A stretch of DNA of 62,523 nt, taken from Nocardioides sp. Its GTDB lineage: Bacteria > Actinomycetota > Actinomycetes > Propionibacteriales > Nocardioidaceae. The translations under genes and the position numbers were made by a program. Shown piece after piece: positions 9,399-43,169 of this stretch. The stretch spans positions 1-62,523 of the forward strand of contig JBPCQY010000052.1 of assembly GCA_050997635.1 (NCBI GenBank), in the 5' to 3' direction. The number at the start of each line of letters is the position of its first letter. Position 1 is the first letter of the stretch. The notes beneath the pieces were generated by a model that worked only from the letters and a program-made list of their open reading frames with translations, had not been told where the DNA came from and searched no databases.

Positions 9399-10688
9399 GT
9401 GACTGACTCTCTCACCGTCCGGGACAATCGCACCGGCCAGGAGTACGACGTACCCATCGAGAACGGCACCGTCAAGGCCGCTGACCTCGGCAAGATCAAG
9501 AGCGGCGAGGACCAACCCGGCATCGCCGTCTACGACCCCGGGTTCGTCAACACGGCCTCCTGCAAGAGCGCGGTGACCTTCATCGACGGCGAGAAGGGGA
9601 TCCTCGAGTACCGCGGCTACCCGATCGAGCAGCTCGCGGAGAAGTCGACGTTCCTCGAGGTCGCCTACCTGCTGATCCACGGCGAGCTGCCGACCAAGGC
9701 GCAGTACGAGCAGTGGGTGCACGACATCACCTACCACACGTTCGTGCACGAGAACGTCAAGTCGTTCATGGAGGGCTTCCGCTACGACGCCCACCCGATG
9801 GGCATGCTGATGGCGTCGGTCGGCGCACTGTCGACGTTCTATCCCGACGCCCGCGACATCTCCAACGACGAGATCCGTCAGCTCCAGATCGTGCGGATGA
9901 TCGCCAAGATGCCGACCCTGGGCGCGTGGTCGTTCCGCCACGCGCAGGGCAAGCCGTTCGTCTACCCCGACAACGAGCTCGGCTACACCGCCAACTTCCT
10001 CTCGATGCTCTTCAAGATGAGCGAGCACCGCTTCGAGGCCGACCCGCGCCTGGTCAAGGCGCTCGACGTGCTGTTCATCCTGCACGCCGACCACGAACAG
10101 AACTGCTCGACCAACGCCGTGCGCTCGGTCGGCTCCTCGCAGGTCGACCCCTACTCGGCGGTCTCCGCCGGCGTCGGCGCGCTGTTCGGCCCGCTGCACG
10201 GCGGCGCCAACGAGGCGGTGCTGCGGATGCTGCGCCGGATCGGGTCGAAGGAGAACATCCCCGACTTCATCAAGGGCGTCAAGGACGGCAACGAGCGGCT
10301 GATGGGCTTCGGCCACCGGGTCTACAAGAACTACGACCCACGCGCCACGATTATCAAGAAGGCCTGCGAGGACGTCTTCGAGGTCACCGGGGTCAACCCG
10401 CTCCTCGAGATTGCCCAGGAGCTGGAGAAGATCGCGCTCGAGGACGACTACTTCGTCTCCCGCAAGCTCTACCCCAACGTCGACTTCTACTCCGGCCTGA
10501 TCTACGAGGCCTTCGCGTTCCCGCCCGAGATGTTCACGGTGCTGTTCGCCATCGGGCGTACGCCGGGCTGGCTCGCGCAGTGGCTGGAGTTGGTGCAGGA
10601 CAAGGAACAGAAGATCGCCCGGCCCAAGCAGATCTACACCGGCGACCGCACGCTCGACTTCGTGCCGTCCTCGCAGCGGTGGGCCTGA
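9399..10688 (+). CDS. gltA: Citrate synthase
   Basis: YDPGFVNTASC, LHADHEQN, GPLHGGANE, MGFGHRVYKNYDPR and YPNVDFYSG motifs. Confidence 0.97.
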   Translation: MTDSLTVRDNRTGQEYDVPIENGTVKAADLGKIKSGEDQPGIAVYDPGFVNTASCKSAVTFIDGEKGILEYRGYPIEQLAEKSTFLEVAYLLIHGELPTKAQYEQWVHDITYHTFVHENVKSFMEGFRYDAHPMGMLMASVGALSTFYPDARDISNDEIRQLQIVRMIAKMPTLGAWSFRHAQGKPFVYPDNELGYTANFLSMLFKMSEHRFEADPRLVKALDVLFILHADHEQNCSTNAVRSVGSSQVDPYSAVSAGVGALFGPLHGGANEAVLRMLRRIGSKENIPDFIKGVKDGNERLMGFGHRVYKNYDPRATIIKKACEDVFEVTGVNPLLEIAQELEKIALEDDYFVSRKLYPNVDFYSGLIYEAFAFPPEMFTVLFAIGRTPGWLAQWLELVQDKEQKIARPKQIYTGDRTLDFVPSSQRWA

Positions 10689-10982
10689 CCCCAGCCCGAC
10701 CGCGCCGGGAGGTGGCCCGGACACACTAGTCACCGGTGGCCGATCGGCTATTTCCCGGTCCAGATCGCTTGATCGTCGGTGATTCGGCATCCATCGGTTC
10801 CCGAATCAACGCACGATGCCCCGGTGTCGACCTGGAGAGTCCCGACTGACGGCGCTCGTCGTCCTGCTCGCGGTGGCCGCATCCGGCGCCGCGGAGGGTG
10901 CGGCGTGGGGGCGCGCCGGCTCCGCTCCCGATCGGCACGAGACTCGTCTGTCGGGCACCGCTCGACACGGCGAGGCTGCACT

Positions 10983-11026
10983 CCGGACGCTGGGCGACGA
11001 ACGGGGGTCGCCGCCCAGCGTTCCGG
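10983..11026. terminator. GC-rich hairpin between convergent gltA and DUF2127 genes
   Basis: CCGGACGCTGGGCGACGA / TCGCCGCCCAGCGTTCCGG imperfect inverted repeat with a 7-nt loop. Confidence 0.5.
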
Positions 11027-11055
11027 GATGACCACGGCCCGGCTCCGGCACCTGG

Positions 11056-11838
11056 TCACCGCGCGATAGCGACGGCCGCCTGCTCGACCTCGAGCAGCGA
11101 CTCGCTCCCGCGCTCGGCCTCGAACGCGGCGTGGCCGCCACGGAAGCCGAAGAGCCGCTTGGTCCACACGATGTAGACCACGGCGAAGACGTTGAAGACG
11201 AAGGTGACCAGCCGCAGCCAGGTGACGCGCTCGACGATCTCGTAGATCTCGAGCGGGATGAAGATCGCCGTCCCGACGACGGCGACGTACTCGCCCCAGC
11301 GCCGCATCAGCCACAGGCCGATCGCCTCGAGCAGCTCGAGGAGCCCGTACGCCGTGACGCCGAGCGCGACGTAGAGCAGCGTGGTGTGCTCGGTGTTGAG
11401 CAGCTTGTCGATCAGCCGCACCGGGCCGGTGGTCTGCAGGTCGATCCCGAGCCGGTCGGCCACGGGCCGCAGCAGGGGCAGGTAGGTGTCGAACACCCGC
11501 CGCAGCGCATCGCGCGAGCCGTCGAACCGGTAGATGCCGTAGGCCAGTGCGAGCAGCAGGACGCCGCGGATCCCCCGCTCGACGGCCAGCAGGCGGAGGA
11601 TGAACGCGTCGCGCAGCTGCTTGCCCCGCAGCACCAACGGCGCCTCCTCGGCGGGCCCGCTCCCCCGGGGCTCGCCCGGCACGAAGGTCCCGCAGCGCAG
11701 GCAGCGCCAGGCGACGCCGACCGGCGTCTCGACGTGCAGGTGGTGGGCGAGGTCGTCCTCGGTGGGCTGGTAGGTGGCATGCCCCTGCCGGCCGCAGCTG
11801 CGGAGGTTCCAGTCCCATCGGCGCCCGGGTCGTTGCAT
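11056..11838 (-). CDS. DUF2127-type membrane protein with an N-terminal Cys/His cluster
   Basis: CGRQGH...WRCLRC N-terminus; EAIGLWLMRRWGEY and PLEIYE motifs. Confidence 0.75.
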   Translation of the reverse strand: MQRPGRRWDWNLRSCGRQGHATYQPTEDDLAHHLHVETPVGVAWRCLRCGTFVPGEPRGSGPAEEAPLVLRGKQLRDAFILRLLAVERGIRGVLLLALAYGIYRFDGSRDALRRVFDTYLPLLRPVADRLGIDLQTTGPVRLIDKLLNTEHTTLLYVALGVTAYGLLELLEAIGLWLMRRWGEYVAVVGTAIFIPLEIYEIVERVTWLRLVTFVFNVFAVVYIVWTKRLFGFRGGHAAFEAERGSESLLEVEQAAVAIAR

Positions 11839-34834: not shown

Positions 34835-35014
34835 GGGTGGCGGTCCCTTCGGTAGGTCACAACGGTTTCGGTCGTGTCGCGTCCTGGCTGCCTCTCGTCG
34901 ATCTTCGTCGAGGCCAGGCTCCGGCCGTTGCTCCGGAGGTGAGTTCGCTGCATCCTTCGATGCAGCTAGCGATCACGTTGTAGTGGTGTTCAGTTGTGCG
35001 GGCTGAGCGTCAGC

Positions 35015-35128
35015 TCAGCCTTGGCGCTGCTTGTGGCGCGGGTTGTCGCAGATCACCATGACGCGGCCGTGGCGACGGATCACCTTGCACTTGTCACAGA
35101 TGCGCTTCACGCTCGGGTTGACCTTCAT
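35015..35128 (-). CDS. rpmJ: 50S ribosomal protein L36, Zn-ribbon type, 37 aa (not in the ORF track)
   Basis: [37 protein letters not shown]. Confidence 0.97.
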
Positions 35129-35159
35129 GTCAGCCCTTTCTCTTCTCGGCTGGTGGCAC

Positions 35160-35381
35160 TTACTTGTAGCGGTAGACGATCCGACCCCGCGTGAGGTCGT
35201 ACGGCGAGAGCTCCACCACGACCCGGTCCTCGGGGAGGATCCGGATGTAGTGCTGGCGCATCTTGCCGCTGATGTGGGCCAGGACCTTGTGACCGTTGCT
35301 CAGCTCGACCCGGAAAAACGCGTTCGGGAGAGCCTCGACGACGGTGCCCTCGATCTCGATCACACCTTCTTTTTTGGGCAT
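35160..35381 (-). CDS. infA: Translation initiation factor IF-1
   Basis: [20 protein letters not shown]...HISGKMR...[15 protein letters not shown]. Confidence 0.98.
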
Positions 35382-35605
35382 GTCCTCCGCTATCTGTTGG
35401 TCAGTCGTCTACCGTCGAACCCGGGAACCGCCCCGCTCGGGTGAGCGGGTGGACCTCGTCGGACCGCCGGCAGCACCGCATCCCGGGCACGCGTTCGATC
35501 CGCTCTGACGAGCTGGTCGAGGAGTGCTCGGGCAGCCGGATGGCGCCACGCAACGGACCCACGTTGGGCCGACACGCCAGTTTAGGCAATCCCTCGCCCG
35601 AACCC

Positions 35606-37060
35606 CTAATCGAGCCGGAGGTCGGCGAAGTAGAGGTCGACCCCCTCGGGTGCGTCGAGCAGCATGGTGCCCTGCTCCGGGTCGATCCGCTGGGTGCCGG
35701 TGTGGTCGACCAGGTAGTGGCGGCCATACGGGGTGCGCCAGACATACCGGCCGCGGCCGCACTGCCGACTGAGATAGCCCGCATGGGTCTTCCAGCGGTG
35801 ATGCCGGCGACCCAGCGGGCCGCAGTTGTGGGTGCCGGTCTGCCCCGGCGGACCGTCACGGTCGTACGGCGTGGGATGGTCCAGATCCACCTGGCCCGCC
35901 ATCCCCGGCACCGCGTTCGCGTAGGGGAAGTAGTCGCCCGGCGTGGTCAGCCGGACCCGCCGAGCCACCCCGACCGGATGCTCATAGCAGTTGACGTCCA
36001 CCCGGTCGTTCAGGTCAACCACGGGGGTCACCCGCACCCGGCAGCCGGCGAACAGATGGTGGTCGGCCAGCAGTGGTCCAATCCCCTCCACCCGCGCCAC
36101 TGGCGGCACCAACCCGGCCACCGCCAGGTCGGTCAGGTGCACGAACAGCTCGACTCGCGGCCGCAACCGCTCCGGGTCGACCTCGCGCAGCGCTGTGAGC
36201 AGGTCCGCGGGGAACGCGGTCGCCCGCGACACCTCCGGCTCCGAGGGCTGCTGCGCCTCCAGGAGCAGCTGCAGGACTTCGGCTGGCCGGGCCAGCCAGC
36301 CGAACGCGATCGATCGCAGCTCGTCCTTGGTGGTTTCTTCGGGGTGGCGGGGCGCGAGCAGGTCGGCGATCCGGTCGACCATGGCGTCGATCCAGACGGC
36401 ATCGCCGGCGTTGACCCGCGCGATGACCTGCCGCAACCCGTGCTCGTCGACCCGGGACAACGCCACGTAGCGGCGCCGCCGCTCTGCTTCGACCTTCGCT
36501 GCGTGAGTGGCCGGGTCGGCCTCGATCACCTTGGCCTCGCAGATCTTCAGCACCCGACCCGGCGACTCACCCGCGATCGCCTCGGCGACCGCGAGGTCGA
36601 CGATCCCGACGCTCGCGGCGGATAGTCGGCGGGACATCCGGGTAACCCTGCGGGCCAACCACGGCTCACATTCCAACGCCTCGACCCTGGCCCAGGTCAG
36701 CGGCAACCGGTGCTGCAGGTCCAGCACGTCGGCGATCGCGTGCTCGCACCCGATCGGGTGGACCTGTCGTGCCGCGGCCAGGTCACCGATGCAGAACTCC
36801 CGCACCCCAGGCGTGCCCTCTCCACCGAGGTGGACCAGTTGGTCCTCGGCCCACACCCGACGACCACTCCCCGGGTCACGGCGTGGGTCGGTGGAGTGCA
36901 CCGCCGCCCACGCCGCCACCACGCGCAGGTCGGCGACCTCGGACGACCGCCGGTTCCGCACCGCCTGCTCGGCGAGGTCCAACAGCTCGGCAGGCGGGAG
37001 CTCGGCCAGATCCTGGACCTCCAGGCTCCGACCGGAGCTCTCCGGACCGAGTGTCGACAT
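35606..37060 (-). CDS. DUF222 (13E12-repeat-like) protein with degenerate C-terminal HNH
   Basis: GGEGTPGVREF and LDLQHRLPLTW N-domain motifs; DLDH...N...HHRWKTH...WRTPYG HNH-like tail; TACCAT 6 nt before ATG 37060. Confidence 0.85.
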   Translation of the reverse strand: MSTLGPESSGRSLEVQDLAELPPAELLDLAEQAVRNRRSSEVADLRVVAAWAAVHSTDPRRDPGSGRRVWAEDQLVHLGGEGTPGVREFCIGDLAAARQVHPIGCEHAIADVLDLQHRLPLTWARVEALECEPWLARRVTRMSRRLSAASVGIVDLAVAEAIAGESPGRVLKICEAKVIEADPATHAAKVEAERRRRYVALSRVDEHGLRQVIARVNAGDAVWIDAMVDRIADLLAPRHPEETTKDELRSIAFGWLARPAEVLQLLLEAQQPSEPEVSRATAFPADLLTALREVDPERLRPRVELFVHLTDLAVAGLVPPVARVEGIGPLLADHHLFAGCRVRVTPVVDLNDRVDVNCYEHPVGVARRVRLTTPGDYFPYANAVPGMAGQVDLDHPTPYDRDGPPGQTGTHNCGPLGRRHHRWKTHAGYLSRQCGRGRYVWRTPYGRHYLVDHTGTQRIDPEQGTMLLDAPEGVDLYFADLRLD

Positions 37061-37072
37061 GGGTCGATGGTA

Positions 37073-37088
37073 TCGAACATCTGTTCGA
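37073..37088. promoter_or_regulatory. LexA (SOS) box of the DUF222 gene
   Basis: TCGAAC-ATCT-GTTCGA, a perfect match to the actinobacterial consensus TCGAAC-N4-GTTCGA, abutting the -10 hexamer. Confidence 0.88.
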
Positions 37089-37150
37089 ACCGCAACTGCG
37101 ATTCCACGTCCGGTACCACTCATCCGGCCGCACTACAGGCCTCGGGCCAA

Positions 37151-37168
37151 CGCACGGACATGCCGATG
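37151..37168 (+). repeat. Cassette-boundary repeat R0 (right half only)
   Basis: CGCACGGACATGCCGATG, 15/18 identical to the right part of R1 (CGCTCGGATCTGCCGATG). Confidence 0.5.
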
Positions 37169-37234
37169 TGAGGATGTCACTCGTCCGAAGGATCGTCGCC
37201 CTTGGCCTTACCCCCATGCGGCACAATACTTTCC

Positions 37235-37621
37235 ATGCCGACCTGGACCTTAAGCGAGATTGAAGCAGCGGTGCGCTCGTCCTGGGGGCCCGACACCTTC
37301 TTCGCCTCAGCTGACTACATGGCCCGGGGCAGCGGGCAGCCGTCGCGAGGTCAGTGCGGAACGACCGCCCTCGTCATCCAGAATCTGCTCGGTGGCGATC
37401 TGATGGTCGCCGACGTCGAGTACGAAGGCCGGGTGGAGGGTGTGCACTACTGGAACGTGACGCCCGGCGGAGTCGAACTCGATCTGACACGGGACCAGTT
37501 CACTCCTGCTGAATCGCTAATCAACCAGCGCTGGGTCACAACAGGACGGAATTCTTTCACAGCAGGCGAGCAACCGTTCCAGCTGCTCCAGGAGCGAGTC
37601 ACCGCCGCTCTGAGCTCGTAG
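37235..37621 (+). CDS. YunG-like protein
   Basis: SW.PDT...GQCGTTALVIQNLLGG...HYWN...DLTRDQF pattern; more A/T-ending codons than flanking genes. Confidence 0.75.
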   Translation: MPTWTLSEIEAAVRSSWGPDTFFASADYMARGSGQPSRGQCGTTALVIQNLLGGDLMVADVEYEGRVEGVHYWNVTPGGVELDLTRDQFTPAESLINQRWVTTGRNSFTAGEQPFQLLQERVTAALSS

Positions 37622-37734
37622 CAGACGCCGTACTTGATCACACGCTGGGAGTCGAAGAGAACCACCGGAGCCCGCATCGATGAGCGGTCAGTTCACCGGA
37701 CAGGAGGCGAGGGCCACGGCGGGATCTTGTCACA

Positions 37735-37811
37735 GGAAGCGCACGCTCATGCCGCGTAGCGTGCGCTCGAAGACGCACGCTTCTGCCGCGATCCGCTCGG
37801 ATCTGCCGATG
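37735..37811 (+). repeat. Cassette-boundary repeats R1' and R1 (tandem)
   Basis: GGAAGCGCACGCTCATGCCGCG followed 34 nt later by GACGCACGCTTCTGCCGCGATCCGCTCGGATCTGCCGATG. Confidence 0.65.
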
Positions 37812-37830
37812 GTCGGGCACTCGTCGAGGT

Positions 37831-38268
37831 ATGTCCGTGCAGACTGGGCCGATGCGTGAGCGAGTCGCCGCGATCATTGAGCGCGAAGCGCTGGTCCTGA
37901 TGGTGCGACAGCGCGCCAGAGGTGATGCAGGACGCCATGACGGCTTCGAATATTTGACGCTTCCTGGCGGGGGTGTCGAAGTGGGCGAATCGCCAGTCGA
38001 TGCACTCGCAAGAGAGGTCGTCGAGGAGGTCGGCCTGCGAGTGGTGAGCGCGTCATGCCTGCGGCGCGTCGAGCACGCGGAGCACCAGGGCGGTGCCACG
38101 AGCCTGTTCTACGTTGAGGTGGAGGAAGGACCGGCGACGCTCGGGTTCGATCCTGAGTTGTCGTGCGATTGTCCTCGATTGGTCGGGATCGACTGGATCA
38201 CCGCGCCGAGCCGCGCGGCTTGGAGGGGCGTTGAGGTGCGGTCGCTACTGAAGATCAGACTCTCGTAA
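37831..38268 (+). CDS. NUDIX hydrolase
   Basis: GGGVEVGESPVDALAREVVEEVG Nudix box (alternative start 37852). Confidence 0.88.
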   Translation: MSVQTGPMRERVAAIIEREALVLMVRQRARGDAGRHDGFEYLTLPGGGVEVGESPVDALAREVVEEVGLRVVSASCLRRVEHAEHQGGATSLFYVEVEEGPATLGFDPELSCDCPRLVGIDWITAPSRAAWRGVEVRSLLKIRLS

Positions 38269-38310
38269 CTGTGTCGCAGCGTCCGGTCGAGCAGCCAATG
38301 CACCCTGGAC

Positions 38311-38358
38311 CCTGACGCGACGCGGGTGCCTGCCGCGATCCACGCTGTCGTGCCGATG
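38311..38358 (+). repeat. Cassette-boundary repeat R2
   Basis: CCTGACG...TGCCGCGATCC-N9-TGCCGATG, same 20-nt internal spacing as R1. Confidence 0.65.
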
Positions 38359-38416
38359 AGCGGACAGTGTCGCGCTGAGGTCACGATCCAGCGACAAAGA
38401 GACTCCGCCTGGCCGC

Positions 38417-38782
38417 GAGGATGTCCCGGGTTCCGTGGAACTTCGGTGGCGGTCCGGTGAGCATCAGGCTGCGCTCACGTCGTGAGTGTTGCAGTCCGCG
38501 CCGACAGTGTGGTCGGCGACATGCTGTTCGAGTGCTGCCCGGAGGGTGGGCAGGTGCAGGTGACCGTTGACGCGGCGGAACTGGGCGGACGCTTCGACCA
38601 TGCCCGCGGCGCACCAGCGCAGCGCCATCTGCCCATCTCGCCAGCGTTTGACGTTCTTGGAGTGCTCGCGGCGGATGCCGATCATCGACTCCACGGCGTT
38701 GGTCGAGCGGAGCGTCCTGGCCAGGGTCGGCGGCAGGTCGAGGCGGAGCACGGTCAGGGTCTCGGCCATCCCTTCGCGCAGT
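38417..38782 (-). mobile_element. IS256-family remnant (transposase C-terminus plus probable terminal inverted repeat)
   Basis: LREGMAETLTV...LRSTNAVESMI...VKRWRDGQMALRWCAAGM..A..QFRRVNG; stop at 38464; probable IR end GAGGATGTCCCGGGTTCCGTGGAAC at 38417; 5' part absent. Confidence 0.82.
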
Positions 38783-38876
38783 AGATCCCGCGACATACGA
38801 CGTCTGTGCCTATGGCCCAAGCAGCGGGCGGTTCAACACGCCCCGGGTTCGGCAAACTTGCTGCCTGCCCTATAGA

Positions 38877-38916
38877 ACCTGACGAAACGCACTAACGCCG
38901 CGATCCGCTTGGATCT
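38877..38916 (+). repeat. Cassette-boundary repeat R3
   Basis: ACCTGACGAAACGCACTAACGCCGCGATCCGCTTGGATCT; GCCGCGATCCGCTYGGATCT is 19/20 identical to R1. Confidence 0.7.
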
Positions 38917-38936
38917 CACGAAGCGAGCGTCGACTC

Positions 38937-39377
38937 CTACGGCTTCCCTGGGTAGATCAGGAGGGCATGGGTTGCGCCTGTCTTGCTCAGGCACTCCCGC
39001 AGCACGGCTTCAGCATCGGCGCTCAAGACGCCGCTCAGGTCGTCGTTCCCGTCGAACAGCCCGCCCCCACCAGTGAAGCTCGAGTCAACCGAGGCATTCG
39101 GAGATCCGCGAAAGTCAGCCCTGAAGACCACCTCACGCCTTCCGTCGTCCCAGGACGTTCCCGCAGGCCAGAACACGACGCCTGTGCCGATCATCAAGCA
39201 GCCGTCGTGCAGCGCAAGGCGTCCGGTGACCAGAGCAGCCGGATAAGGAATCCTGGAATCCGCGACGCGGGTGATGACGGGGCTGGGGATCTTGGCCGAG
39301 GAGACTGACGTACCGCTGCTACAGCCGAGCAGCAACATCGTGAGCGTGAGCAGACCGAGACCTTGCCGACTCTTCAT
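38937..39377 (-). CDS. Putative lipoprotein of unknown function
   Basis: MKSRQGLGLLTLTMLLLGC lipobox; ALVTGRL...GCL...VFWPAGT body. Confidence 0.75.
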   Translation of the reverse strand: MKSRQGLGLLTLTMLLLGCSSGTSVSSAKIPSPVITRVADSRIPYPAALVTGRLALHDGCLMIGTGVVFWPAGTSWDDGRREVVFRADFRGSPNASVDSSFTGGGGLFDGNDDLSGVLSADAEAVLRECLSKTGATHALLIYPGKP

Positions 39378-39414
39378 GATCATCTGACGCCTCGGCATAC
39401 CAGATGGTTGCTCG

Positions 39415-39447
39415 CGAAGCGCACTCATCTAGCTAGGCCGCGATCCG
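39415..39447 (+). repeat. Cassette-boundary repeat R4 containing an 8-bp CTAGCTAG insertion
   Basis: CGAAGCGCACTCAT[CTAGCTAG]GCCGCGATCCG; 22/25 identical to R3 once the insert is removed. Confidence 0.7.
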
Positions 39448-39536
39448 AAAGTCAAGTCCCTTGGACTCGTGGATCCTCAACCCCGCCTCCGACGACTGCA
39501 CAGCGGGTGGCGACTATGACACGATGCCGCCGAGGT

Positions 39537-40295
39537 TCATCCGGTTGAGTGTCGAGCCTGCTCCAGGTTCGACTTGTGAGGCCCGGCGAGCCAGTCTTGC
39601 TCCAGACGCGCGTCGACCGGGTCCTCTCCCCGCCGCAGCGCATCGAGGTAGGCACGATCCGCGGCCAGGCGGGCTGCCACCTCGGGACCTTCGGCAACGG
39701 CGCCGTGGCCGGGGACGACGACCTCGACGTGCTCGGTGGCCTCACTCAGGCGGTCGAGTGCGGTCTCGTAGGCGTCCACCTGGCCGGGGCGGCGAGGGTC
39801 GAGGAGCGGGACCAAGACGTCGGAGAGCATGTCGCCGGCGAGCAGGACGCCACGGTCCGCGAGGAGGAGGGCGGCATGGCCGACGGCGTGCGCGTCGTGC
39901 TCGACGAGCGTACCCGGGACCGGTCCGCCGTCCGCGGGCAGCGGAGTGACCAGCCCGATCAGCTCGAGCGGGATGCCCGAGGCGCTCCCCGCTGCCATCG
40001 TCTGGGCTCGCTCTCGCGCTTCGGTCGCAGCCTGGGCGCAGTCGGGGGTGGCGTAGCGCGGCACGTCGCCGAACCGGGGATGCCAGAGCAGGTGGTCCCA
40101 GTGCGGATGGGTGGAGAACCCGGCAACCACCGGGAGGCCCAGCCGGCCCAGGTCATCGGCGAGCTGGTCCAGATCGGAACCGTCGATGCCGGGATCGACC
40201 AGGACCAACCCACCATCCACGCGCACCGCGATGGCATTGCTCCAGACCCACTCGCTCTGCCGGACCCAGACGCCCTCGGCCACCTCAGTCAACAT
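39537..40295 (-). CDS. Metallo-beta-lactamase-fold hydrolase
   Basis: LVDPG, THPHWDH (HxHxDH), HAVGH, LAGDM, VPGHG. Confidence 0.9.
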   Translation of the reverse strand: MLTEVAEGVWVRQSEWVWSNAIAVRVDGGLVLVDPGIDGSDLDQLADDLGRLGLPVVAGFSTHPHWDHLLWHPRFGDVPRYATPDCAQAATEARERAQTMAAGSASGIPLELIGLVTPLPADGGPVPGTLVEHDAHAVGHAALLLADRGVLLAGDMLSDVLVPLLDPRRPGQVDAYETALDRLSEATEHVEVVVPGHGAVAEGPEVAARLAADRAYLDALRRGEDPVDARLEQDWLAGPHKSNLEQARHSTG

Positions 40296-40387
40296 CGGCT
40301 CACCCTGTCAGGCACTTCCGCCCGGCACAATCTCGCTGGGACCTCCTCAGACGAATCAACGCTCATGTCGATGGCAGAGGGTTGCGT

Positions 40388-40792
40388 TCAGGTGCGGTGG
40401 ACACCGATCGCGTCCACCAGGAGCGTGGCCAAAGGTTCGTGGGCGAGAGTAGGCAACTCGCCGGGCAAGAACCACCGGATCTCGTCATGCTCATCGGGAG
40501 CCACGTTCGTCGCCGTTCCGTGCCACTCGCCGACAAGCCAGGCGCTGAGGAGCACGGACTCCTCTCCGGACCCTGCGTTCAACCGGCACAAGTGAACCAC
40601 CGAGCCCACCGATATGTGCACACCCAGCTCCTCGTGCAACTCCCTCGTGAGCGCGCCCAGTTCCGACTCGCCAGCCTCGATGTGTCCGCCAGGCAGATCC
40701 CACAGACCCGGGTAGGCGCGGCGGCTCGGACTCCGATGGACGAGTAGGACTCGGCCCCCACGAACCAGCGCCCCGCTCACGACCTCATGCAT
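40388..40792 (-). CDS. NUDIX hydrolase (MutT-like)
   Basis: WDLPGGHIEAGESELGALTRELHEELG. Confidence 0.9.
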   Translation of the reverse strand: MHEVVSGALVRGGRVLLVHRSPSRRAYPGLWDLPGGHIEAGESELGALTRELHEELGVHISVGSVVHLCRLNAGSGEESVLLSAWLVGEWHGTATNVAPDEHDEIRWFLPGELPTLAHEPLATLLVDAIGVHRT

Positions 40793-40874
40793 GCCAGGCA
40801 GTACAGCATGGGCTTCCGACCAAGCAAATCGTGCGCGATCTACGCGTCGGCGTCAGGCGAGCCACGGCCAGGCT

Positions 40875-43169
40875 TCAGCGTGGACGGCGCAACGAGGTCA
40901 GGCTCAGGGCGGCCCGGATCCGCTGCCGCCGACCCACCGCGGTCGACATGGCGCGGCGTTCGGAGTTGATCTCGCGCCAGTACGCCGCCGCGGCGTCCGC
41001 CTCGGGAGCGCGCGGGCCGAAGACCTGGCTGTCGGCCCGGCGGGCCAGCACGGGCGCGGACGTCGACGTGGCGAACGAGCGGGACTGCTCGCGCCGAGTC
41101 ACCCCCGCGGTCACGGGGATCGGCTGGCCGAGGTCGCGCGCGTGGTCGACCAGCTCGTGCCAGCCGCCGACGAACCGGGACGAGACCCGTCCGGCCCGCC
41201 GTCGGCGGCGACGGCGCAGGGCCTTGAGCCCCACGACGGCGCCCAGCAGCAACACGATCACGAGCACCGGCACGCCGCCGTACGTGAGGACGGTGGAGAC
41301 CCAGTGGGTCACCGTCCTCAGAGCGGCCGCCGGCGGCGGCGCAGGCGGCTTGGGCGCCGCCTTCTTGGACTTCTGGGCGCGCAGGTTGGTGTCGGCCTGG
41401 TCGCCGACGGAGGACGGCGGCGGCAGCGGCTGCGGGGGAGGTACGACGGCCCCGGTGAGCCGCTGCTCGCTCTGCGGCGGCTGCGCCGCGGGCTTGTCGC
41501 GGCTCATGAACGCGCTGGTGGGCAGGGTGCGCCACGAGTCGTCGGCGACCCGCACCTCGACCCACGCGTGCACGTCGCGGCCCCTGACCACGCCGGAGGC
41601 CGGCGTGACCGCGCCGAACACCACCCGAGCGGGGACGCCGATCCGGTTGGCCAGCAGCGCCATCCACGCGGCGTACTGCTCGTCGTCCCCGACCAGCACC
41701 CGCGAGTTGAGCCCGCCGGCGTCGTCGGAGAGCCGGTACTGGTTGTGGCCGGGGTGGTAGATCTGCTCGGCGGCGCCGGCGCCGTCGGAGTACTTCCCGT
41801 CTCGCTTGAGGTGGCGGGCGATGGCGAAGAGCCGCTCCATCGGCCGGCTCGCGCCCTCGGACCACGTGACCGCCTGGGTGTCGAGGAAGCCGCCGTCGGT
41901 CGACGCGTCCACGAGCGGGTCGCCGGGCTCGTCACGGCTCGTGAGCGACTCGTCGGGCTCGACCCCGGAGAACTCCCAGCCGTCACCCGGCGTCAGACCG
42001 GTGGGTACGACGCCCGTGGCGGTCGCCAGGTTGTAGCGGAAGCTCTGCTCCATCGTGTCGACGTCGCCGGACCGGAAGTGCAGCTCGGTCAGGTCACCGA
42101 CGGTCGGCAGCCACACGCCGGAGTAGCCGGGGCCGAGCGTGAGCGTGCCCGAGACCGAGCGACCCGTCACCGGGCTGTCGATCTTCGAGGAGACGCGTTG
42201 GAAGGTGTCGTCGACGGGGCCCGGCTCGGTGCCGTTGGACGCGCCGTACACCGAGCCGTCGTACCGGTCCAGGGTCGCGATCCGGACCCGAGTGCCGGCT
42301 GGGACGCCGGTGACCGTGAAGAGGGTGGTGTCGTGGAGGTTCTGCGGGGCCTTCTTCGGCTGCTGCACGTAGCGACGGAATGACGCGAGCGGCGAGGGAT
42401 ACTGCCCGACGTCCAGCGGCGGTGCGACGTAGGTGCGCAGGATGACCCGGTTGCCGTCGCCCCCGCTCGCCCAGGTGCCGACGGGCAGGGCGACCAGCGC
42501 GGCGAGCGCGACGAGACCCGCTCCGGCGACCACTCGCGGCACCCGCGAGGTCGACCCGTGTACGGCGCCGGTACGCCGGGCGTGGCGCAGGATGAGCCAG
42601 CACAGCGAGAGCACGGCGACCAGCACGCCCTCGACCCACAGCGACTGCGGTCGGTGGATGCCGAGCAGGATCACCAGCGCCAGCAGCCCGAGCGGCGCCA
42701 GCAGCGGCAGCGGAGCGGTGAACCAGAGGGGGCCGCGGTCGGCGCCGGCCAGGAGCGCGCCGAGCATGCCGAAGAACTGCCCCATCACGAACGGCAGCAC
42801 CAGCAGCGGCCCACCGGCGTCGAGCGGCGGCAGCGTGGTGAGCAGGTCCTTCCAGCCGAACAGCGCCGCCTGGGTCAGCAGGTGCGCGCTGCTCGGTCCG
42901 GGGGCGCCGGCGCCCTCGCCGCGCAGGCACAGCGGGCCACCCAGCAGGTAGAAGGCGGCGAGCACGATCAGTACCGTCGCGATCGCCGGCCAGCCGAACC
43001 CGCGCGTCACGATCGCGGAGCCGACACCGATCACGGCACCGACCAGCCCGACCACGAGGTAGCCGTTGCCCTGGTACGTCGGGGCGAGGCCGACCAGGAC
43101 GACGGCGGTCAGCACCAGCAGCACTCCGGCGTCGACCCAGGTCGCCCGGGTCGGGGGCGAGAACCTCAT
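40875..43169 (-). CDS. Multi-TM transglutaminase-like (TgpA-type) protein with altered catalytic residues
   Basis: About 7 N-terminal TM segments, SPLASFR, GDDEQYA...GVPARVVFG...HAWVEV, C-terminal TM; ATGA overlap with the DUF58 gene. Confidence 0.85.
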   Translation of the reverse strand: MRFSPPTRATWVDAGVLLVLTAVVLVGLAPTYQGNGYLVVGLVGAVIGVGSAIVTRGFGWPAIATVLIVLAAFYLLGGPLCLRGEGAGAPGPSSAHLLTQAALFGWKDLLTTLPPLDAGGPLLVLPFVMGQFFGMLGALLAGADRGPLWFTAPLPLLAPLGLLALVILLGIHRPQSLWVEGVLVAVLSLCWLILRHARRTGAVHGSTSRVPRVVAGAGLVALAALVALPVGTWASGGDGNRVILRTYVAPPLDVGQYPSPLASFRRYVQQPKKAPQNLHDTTLFTVTGVPAGTRVRIATLDRYDGSVYGASNGTEPGPVDDTFQRVSSKIDSPVTGRSVSGTLTLGPGYSGVWLPTVGDLTELHFRSGDVDTMEQSFRYNLATATGVVPTGLTPGDGWEFSGVEPDESLTSRDEPGDPLVDASTDGGFLDTQAVTWSEGASRPMERLFAIARHLKRDGKYSDGAGAAEQIYHPGHNQYRLSDDAGGLNSRVLVGDDEQYAAWMALLANRIGVPARVVFGAVTPASGVVRGRDVHAWVEVRVADDSWRTLPTSAFMSRDKPAAQPPQSEQRLTGAVVPPPQPLPPPSSVGDQADTNLRAQKSKKAAPKPPAPPPAAALRTVTHWVSTVLTYGGVPVLVIVLLLGAVVGLKALRRRRRRRAGRVSSRFVGGWHELVDHARDLGQPIPVTAGVTRREQSRSFATSTSAPVLARRADSQVFGPRAPEADAAAAYWREINSERRAMSTAVGRRQRIRAALSLTSLRRPR

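Follow-up and report, generated by a model that had tools for sequence, protein, structure and literature searches.

Single-gene units between two-armed sites in Nocardioides: a likely cassette array and its candidate tyrosine recombinase

Why does one short motif, GCCGCGATCC, stand in four successive gaps between unrelated genes of a Nocardioides contig, each time in the same orientation? The contig (JBPCQY010000052.1 of assembly GCA_050997635.1) was analyzed over 62,523 nucleotides, a stretch called the window below, and the repeats lie in its interval 37151–40870. An earlier note on this DNA had read the interval as an array of gene cassettes whose recombinase acts in trans. The comparative data presented here support that reading, and from them we infer recombination. 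We propose, with a probability of about 0.68, that two-armed sites of about 28 bp partition the DNA into units of one gene each, and that a single small tyrosine recombinase likely uses them, as double-stranded DNA, for crossover. The observations behind this proposal are the anatomy of the sites, with two core types called A and C, their order (A-gene-C, then C-linker-A), the occurrence of arrays at many loci, shared segments that end at sites, and the position of the recombinase gene.

The motif GCCGCGATCC lies on the plus strand at 37785, 38332, 38897, and 39437 (repeats R1 to R4), so the positions and the single orientation given in the earlier note are right. That note had let its reading depend on whether the extended motif is any commoner than in shuffled sequence; the 10-mer itself occurs five times in the window, compared with 0.90 expected, and none of 100 shuffles attains five. 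Genome-wide its number is unremarkable (89 copies, 81 expected under an order-5 Markov model), and a cluster of four on one strand within 1.66 kb, with an expectation of about 3e-4 clusters per genome, is not due to chance. The likeness of R1, R2, and R3 exceeds the core, as claimed, and extends over 48 nt (65–71%). The match of R3 to R4 also stands, provided that an insertion is allowed in R4, which the note did not mention. Two further copies listed in the note, at 37151 and, in tandem, at 37735, proved to be strong sites, with scores of 30 and 32 in a position weight matrix (PWM); those at about 40346–40374 and 40832–40840 were not confirmed on their own. The interval is indeed richer in A and T (65.9% GC, compared with 70.9% for the genome). 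The division of R3 into 11-bp arms around cgcac had to be given up as a symmetric unit, since the center of the dyad is the TGCCG(A/C) core. A profile derived from relatives finds five strong sites in the window, with cores at 37161, 37750, 37784, 37804, and 38351, and a weak core at 38331. Elsewhere in this genome there are scattered weak sites only, single or paired. An Rfam scan of 35000–41500 gave no match at E up to 0.1.

Each site spans about 28–30 bp and has a 6-bp core that hardly varies, flanked by two degenerate arms in inverted orientation; together they form an 11-6-11 dyad. Among 1014 distinct sites, the core is TGCCGC (C type) in 545 and TGCCGA (A type) in 336. The arms are best conserved at the mirror positions −5/+12, −8/+15, and −9/+16, with C at −5 and G at +12 in 93–97% of the 881 A and C sites. 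Because the profile had been seeded on the core, the core was masked for a scan with the arms only. TGCCGA or TGCCGC then stood at the center of 466 of 672 matches in arrays and of none of 469 matches elsewhere in this genome. The background density of sites is 0.23 per 10 kb. The order of the two types is strict: 153 of 177 close pairs are C-then-A and none is A-then-C, and 42 C-C pairs are spaced 31–40 bp apart. Genes stand between an A site on the left and a C site on the right, and neighboring units join at C-then-A pairs. Within pairs, the spacing has maxima at 20, 22, and 24 bp, and the inner arms overlap; in Actinoplanes the two sites are about 60–80 bp apart. The C-to-A linkers of Actinoplanes and of one uncultured actinobacterium are 54–74 nt long (L180, L199, L200, L204, and L188; L and G numbers denote the loci and genomes of our set). 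A 34-bp C-type unit, equivalent to a cassette without a gene, forms tandem runs of up to five copies, and its sequence hardly differs from species to species (L069:8614-8777, L063:11943-12059, L079:8509-8664).

Comparison of 131 bp of the repeat with 151 genomes of the genus gave clustered matches at unrelated loci. The set of 53 loci comprises the window, 12 loci of relatives, and 40 loci chosen by the repeat, some of which are adjoining pieces of one array. Scanning them with a site profile, as the earlier note had suggested, revealed 44 runs of at least four same-strand sites in 37 of the 53 loci, the longest with 29 sites. Several arrays may lie at separate places within a single genome. 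The A-to-C intervals (n = 168) have a median length of 608 bp and 64.7% GC and usually hold one open reading frame (ORF). By crude ORF calls, 91 of these frames point with the site direction and 76 against it; of the 119 scanned among 167, 37 have a Pfam match and 82 have none. The matched families include GNAT, APH-family, glyoxalase, immunity-like, and ParE proteins. A loose site pattern was positive in 123 of 201 genomes of the genus, where a reversed control also matches often and only genomes with 8–21 matches stand out. A strict double-site pattern, applied to 401 genomes of the phylum, was too strict to be informative, as it found no match even in the genome of the window. A plasmid search returned two records, both distant.

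Several arrays encode, inside them, a tyrosine recombinase of 308 residues. The gene of Nocardioides currus lies at L066:2168-3091. It matches PF00589 (81 bits) and PF13495, and the catalytic set R160, K186, H250, R253, H276, and Y285 is invariant in eight sequences. The protein stays below the cut-offs for XerC (117.8 vs 335) and XerD (120 vs 330), and it reaches 53.6 bits against a cut-off of 265 with the IntI profile TIGR02249, over residues 223–290 only. It aligns to the XerD profile without a large insertion; the insertion specific to integron integrases is absent. Among the best 80 of 281 matches, the clade occurs in Nocardioides, Propionibacteriaceae, Intrasporangiaceae, Actinoplanes, and Actinomadura, and the clade and the sites co-occur in five actinobacterial families. 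The clade is a candidate for the co-occurring tyrosine recombinase that the earlier note had told the reader to look for. Sites lie within 1 kb of the gene at 93 of 102 loci of this one clade (a number weakened by between-search duplicates and kin among the 102), compared with 1 of 12 and 3 of 22 loci of sister clades and 0 of 4 XerC/D genes. Across 96 distinct loci, the recombinase gene occupies the linker, or noncassette, side of the nearest site in all 47 upstream flanks and in 34 of the 43 downstream ones (81 of 90 in total), and ordinary intervals are on the cassette side in 377 of 507 cases. The nearest site follows the stop codon by 11–62 bases or precedes the start by up to about 190 bases. 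By arrangement only, the lone site beside the recombinase gene would resemble the primary site beside an integrase gene.

The nearest annotated relatives of the recombinase are integrases of Arthrobacter phages (about 45% identity), from which the clade is separated in a quick tree with a Shimodaira–Hasegawa-like approximate likelihood ratio support of 99. Similarity to Brujita Gp33 (5vfz) is limited to E 1.5e-9. No array site was found near the gp36 gene of Arthrobacter phage Isolde, and none of the loci examined places the recombinase in a prophage. A 6.7-kb unannotated record filed as bacteriophage (MT837522.1) contains a piece 93% identical to it. A second recombinase clade (36–41% identity) occurs in or near arrays at six loci (L228, L234, L024, L230, L232, L240), at no fixed distance from the sites. 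A single-protein search of 401 genomes of the phylum, with five candidates scored per genome, gave matches in four genomes, all belonging to the sister clades of about 45% identity. No LexA box lies upstream of the recombinase genes at 88 loci, where the best candidates have at least three mismatches. The AlphaFold model of the recombinase has a mean predicted local distance difference test score of 52.5.

Traces of movement were sought in an all-against-all comparison, which gave 15 shared segments within arrays. The nine that were retained have 36 ends, of which 20 are no more than 25 nt away from a core, compared with 7.5% by chance, and in the four segments with at least 90% identity 15 of 16 ends are at cores. 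Genome G087 carries a 624-bp unit in two arrays that is 98.9% identical from core to core. The NUDIX gene of the window (37831–38268, plus strand, PF00293) is also present in metagenome contigs, where it follows an A site and the DNA upstream is different (X1 records 3 and 4; X8 record 29). In two contigs with unlike upstream DNA, the shared unit begins at 37806, inside the A core; in a third record it stands behind another A site. An IS30-like element with a 383-residue transposase sits inside site cores at four loci, three in G087 and one in G136 (L134:10635-11850, L127:4788-6062, L135:7686-8900, L131:10128-11412), which suggests that it prefers these sites as a target.

We propose that the small tyrosine recombinase excises and integrates single-gene units as cassettes. 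One protein would bind both arms, and like cores would recombine, A with A and C with C. Excision would thus yield a circle of one gene with its short linker, to be integrated at the lone site that adjoins the recombinase gene, and two exchanges, one at A and one at C, could replace a single gene. The recombinase gene itself would represent the C-to-A linker in its long form. Crossover between an A and a C core, or with a core reversed, may now and then give rise to single sites, 34-bp tandem units, and inversions. A crossover of A with C has one mismatch, at the edge of the core, and a similar single-base mismatch in the spacer is tolerated in recombination at the pdif sites of Acinetobacter, according to the accessible text of PMC13141974. 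The array in the window is likely an orphan that is partly decayed and served in trans or in the past.

Several observations weigh against this proposal, in addition to the duplicates noted above. The PWM was trained on the very loci that it scored, and the two weakest, rightmost copies in the window score at background. The array recombinase was not found in the genome of the window, which is 77% complete, nor in five array-rich genomes that are 92–100% complete. A match with at least 57% identity is present in only 26 of 201 genomes of the genus, often in pieces. A single-protein search of 401 genomes of the phylum, with five candidates scored per genome, found it in four, all about 45% sister clades. 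[quoted passage not shown] Six of the 15 shared segments were one 1.2-kb IS30-like element (HTH_38, rve) and were dropped, and 16 of the 36 remaining ends are off any site. Between two arrays of G005, one cassette has its core reversed at one end; another cassette changes its core type between arrays with a 2-base shift. Neither change is predicted by strict spacer homology. Some metagenome contigs end 13–40 bases off the cores (37174, 37203, 38281), and the contigs in seven run alignments contain no excised junction and no joint across a cassette; run X3 has no coverage over 40022–40774, yet no contig joins across. Finally, the A core and its neighbors resemble, in sequence, the XerC arm of the host dif site.

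The last point raises the possibility that the sites are substrates of host XerC, by itself or together with XerD, in the manner of Acinetobacter pdif, with the small recombinase as a mere rider. The dif site of the genus, searched with a Frankia site as seed (PMC3025954, accessible part), is present once per genome in five of five genomes, in that of the window at G000:C223:27907-27934 (L222). Compared with the arms of these five sites, the A-site profile agrees with the XerC arm in 6.9 of 11 positions, GCCGAT being common to that arm and the A-type core region, so the similarity to dif that the earlier note had thought worth checking is real on one side. It fails on the other: the XerD arm agrees in 2.4 of 11 positions, so no such arm stands at dif spacing, and the array PWM finds no match at the dif loci L218-L222. 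Array-rich genomes with XerC/D-type genes and no array recombinase (G129, G087, G096, G144, G010) speak for the host enzymes. We consider their role unlikely because the partner arm is missing, the site has its dyad center in the very segment that would have to serve as XerC arm, and the recombinase gene is placed in a particular way of its own, whereas a rider would be expected on the cassette side. The sites are also co-oriented, whereas pdif sites alternate in orientation (PMC13141974, accessible text). A rather more doubtful explanation dispenses with a dedicated site-specific recombinase and takes the sites as repeats of the repetitive extragenic palindromic type, as transposon ends with the core as the duplicated target, or as insertion hot spots. 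Many arms do start with TG and finish with CA, the core orientation flips relative to one shared cassette, and the IS30-like element in cores and the 34-bp tandem expansions would fit. However, the cores around a gene differ systematically, A on the left and C on the right, unlike a duplication; complementarity between both ends of a cassette does not exceed that between ends taken from different cassettes; and the tight link is to a tyrosine recombinase.

It is improbable that the DUF222/HNH element beside the window array founds or drives such arrays. Of 40 arrays selected by the repeat, 5, among them that of the window, have a gene of this kind 25–100 bp ahead of their first site, compared with 1 of 38 array ends; the gene comes with a LexA box, and 13E12 elements carry phage attachment sites according to the accessible text of PMC3381160. 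However, 35 of 40 array starts and all 32 recombinase-selected loci are without it, its orientation varies, and, of 11 such loci in this genome, a strong site adjoins only one. Least probable of all, in our view, is recombination of the C-A pair in a folded, single-stranded form, as a hairpin of the attC type. The pair does resemble two simple sites with a central bubble, its folds are more stable than those of shuffles (−9.8 vs −7.9 kcal/mol), and the Actinoplanes linkers have a length compatible with such a structure. Nevertheless, no covariation of the arms, outer or inner, was detected in 133 pairs (z −2.5 to +1.4), and the folds of 102 pairs show no gain over arm-swapped controls (p 0.27–0.57), on which grounds we rejected the model. 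Of the 11 long linkers, only two have z below about −2 relative to shuffles, the others not, and the recombinase lacks the integron insertion. Sites of tyrosine recombinases have protein-binding arms around a crossover core. This geometry, together with the lack of hairpin covariation, leads us to read the arms as bound by protein on double-stranded DNA, as the proposal of a small recombinase with two-armed crossover sites assumes.

How does this arrangement compare with known systems? It would function like an integron, is built more like pdif modules, and lacks defining features of both; the likeness to attC and pdif drawn in the earlier note thus extends to a cassette array with recombination-type sites and ends at the pairing of attC arms and at the XerD arm. 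Integrons and CALIN resemble it in that each interval holds one small accessory gene, the sites all point the same way, a lone site adjoins a tyrosine recombinase gene, genes are separated by double sites, and many arrays have no enzyme. In contrast to integrons, the enzyme is not IntI, there is no attC hairpin pairing, the 6-bp core is invariant, genes occur in both orientations instead of being co-oriented, and arrays can extend on both sides of the enzyme gene. Actinobacteria appear without complete integrons in the accessible text of the IntegronFinder survey (PMC4889954). Acinetobacter pdif/dif modules also have 11-6-11 double-stranded sites, two alternating module classes, and insertion sequences that target the sites. 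In our arrays, however, both arms follow one consensus, without a XerD arm, and co-oriented sites alternate by core type in runs of up to 29, whereas neighboring pdif sites are inversely oriented (PMC13141974, accessible text). One near-constant core replaces the many spacers of pdif, and the arrays are chromosomal with their own linked recombinase. Chromosomal dif shares GCCGAT but is single-copy and has a XerD arm. The simple, arm-less actinophage integrases (Isolde gp36, Brujita Gp33) are likewise small two-domain recombinases, but ours forms a separate clade. The accessible part of the simple-recombinase classification PMC8138268 names no such cassette group, and we found no description of the system in titles and abstract openings, a literature that mostly leaves subscription journals and supplements outside. 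With somewhat less confidence than the proposal itself, we favor the view that this is a third, independently evolved cassette system beside integrons and pdif, with a simple recombinase derived from phages, two core types, and double-stranded sites, which travels as its own long linker and forms dispersed arrays in at least five actinobacterial families.

Within the window, the array opens with a lone A-type site (37149–37178, plus strand as for all sites here; core 37161–37166; PWM score 30.4; arms 10.6 and 10.9, above the 99.9th percentile of background), a candidate primary, attI-like site. The YunG-like gene follows (37202–37621, plus strand, PF24585, E 5e-26), and then a broken A-type site at 37677–37692, with a core two bases short, a good right arm (11.6), and a left arm at background. 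R1 belongs to a C-C-A cluster (37738–37821) with C cores at 37750 and 37784 in a 34-bp tandem unit and an A core at 37804 (scores 32.2, 32.6, and 25.7). G005 has 40 bp of this cluster at 100% identity, and G045 and G096 carry tandem copies of the 34-bp unit. Beyond the NUDIX gene, R2 is a C-A pair (38319–38368) with a weak C core at 38331 (7.0) and a strong A core at 38351 (24.7). A remnant of an IS256-family transposase occupies one interval (38464–38781, minus strand; NF033543, E 7e-9, residues 10–75), and its insertion-sequence homology in contigs ends at 38781. R3 is a decayed C-A pair (38884–38933) with one change in the core at 38896 and three in that at 38916; its C right arm scores 7.2 (about the 99.9th percentile), and its remaining arms are weak. 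The ORF after it (38937–39428, minus strand), which the earlier note had called a lipoprotein, is predicted to be secreted or lipoprotein-like and has no Pfam or NCBIfam match. R4 is a C site (39418–39453) with a 6-base insertion, hence a core of 12 bases, and a left arm of 12.3; its sequence suggests that it is probably inactive. Extra bases forming CTAG occur in the cores at 39430–39441 of the window, L075:16084-16143, and L038 near 1500, and are possibly footprints of insertion sequences.

The metallo-beta-lactamase-fold hydrolase gene (39537–40295, minus strand, PF00753) is likely a cassette with decayed flanking sites; a C-like site stands at the corresponding end of an 86% homolog on the margin of array L075. 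A weak A-like copy (40354–40383, plus strand, core 40366–40371, arms 0.6 and 1.8) and a C-like copy at the right border (40820–40848, plus strand) are indistinguishable from chance, and the second NUDIX gene (40388–40792, minus strand, PF00293) is assigned to the array by position only. Pfam agrees with the YunG, metallo-beta-lactamase, and both NUDIX labels of the earlier note, and NCBIfam with its C-terminal IS256 remnant. At the head of the array lies the DUF222/HNH-like gene (35606–37060, minus strand), 29% identical to a protein of L023 and without a Pfam match of its own. A perfect LexA-type box (37073–37088, plus strand; consensus from the accessible part of PMC3381160) is 13 bases upstream of its start. 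Genes of this type are multicopy in the genus, and the neighbor gene in L064 is PF02720 with HNH.

The block of 35.6–40.87 kb is an insertion, as the gap between its flanks is just 93–176 bp in four of the five relative loci that have both flanks. The fifth carries a different 1.5-kb insert in the infA-proximal gap (L032, G004:C58 about 10060–11600), which makes the locus a possible hot spot of insertion. In G023, the empty locus (L009, gap between flanks) contains a single, unscored A-like motif, possibly an unoccupied target.

The site and an enzyme of about 300 residues are small and defined, and the claim is therefore directly testable. A one-protein system with two core types could also serve the engineering of high-GC hosts. 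If the proposal is true, actinobacteria would have a gene-capture system of their own, unlike integrons in construction, and those of soil would possess a modular platform that tools based on attC do not see and that holds mostly unannotated genes.

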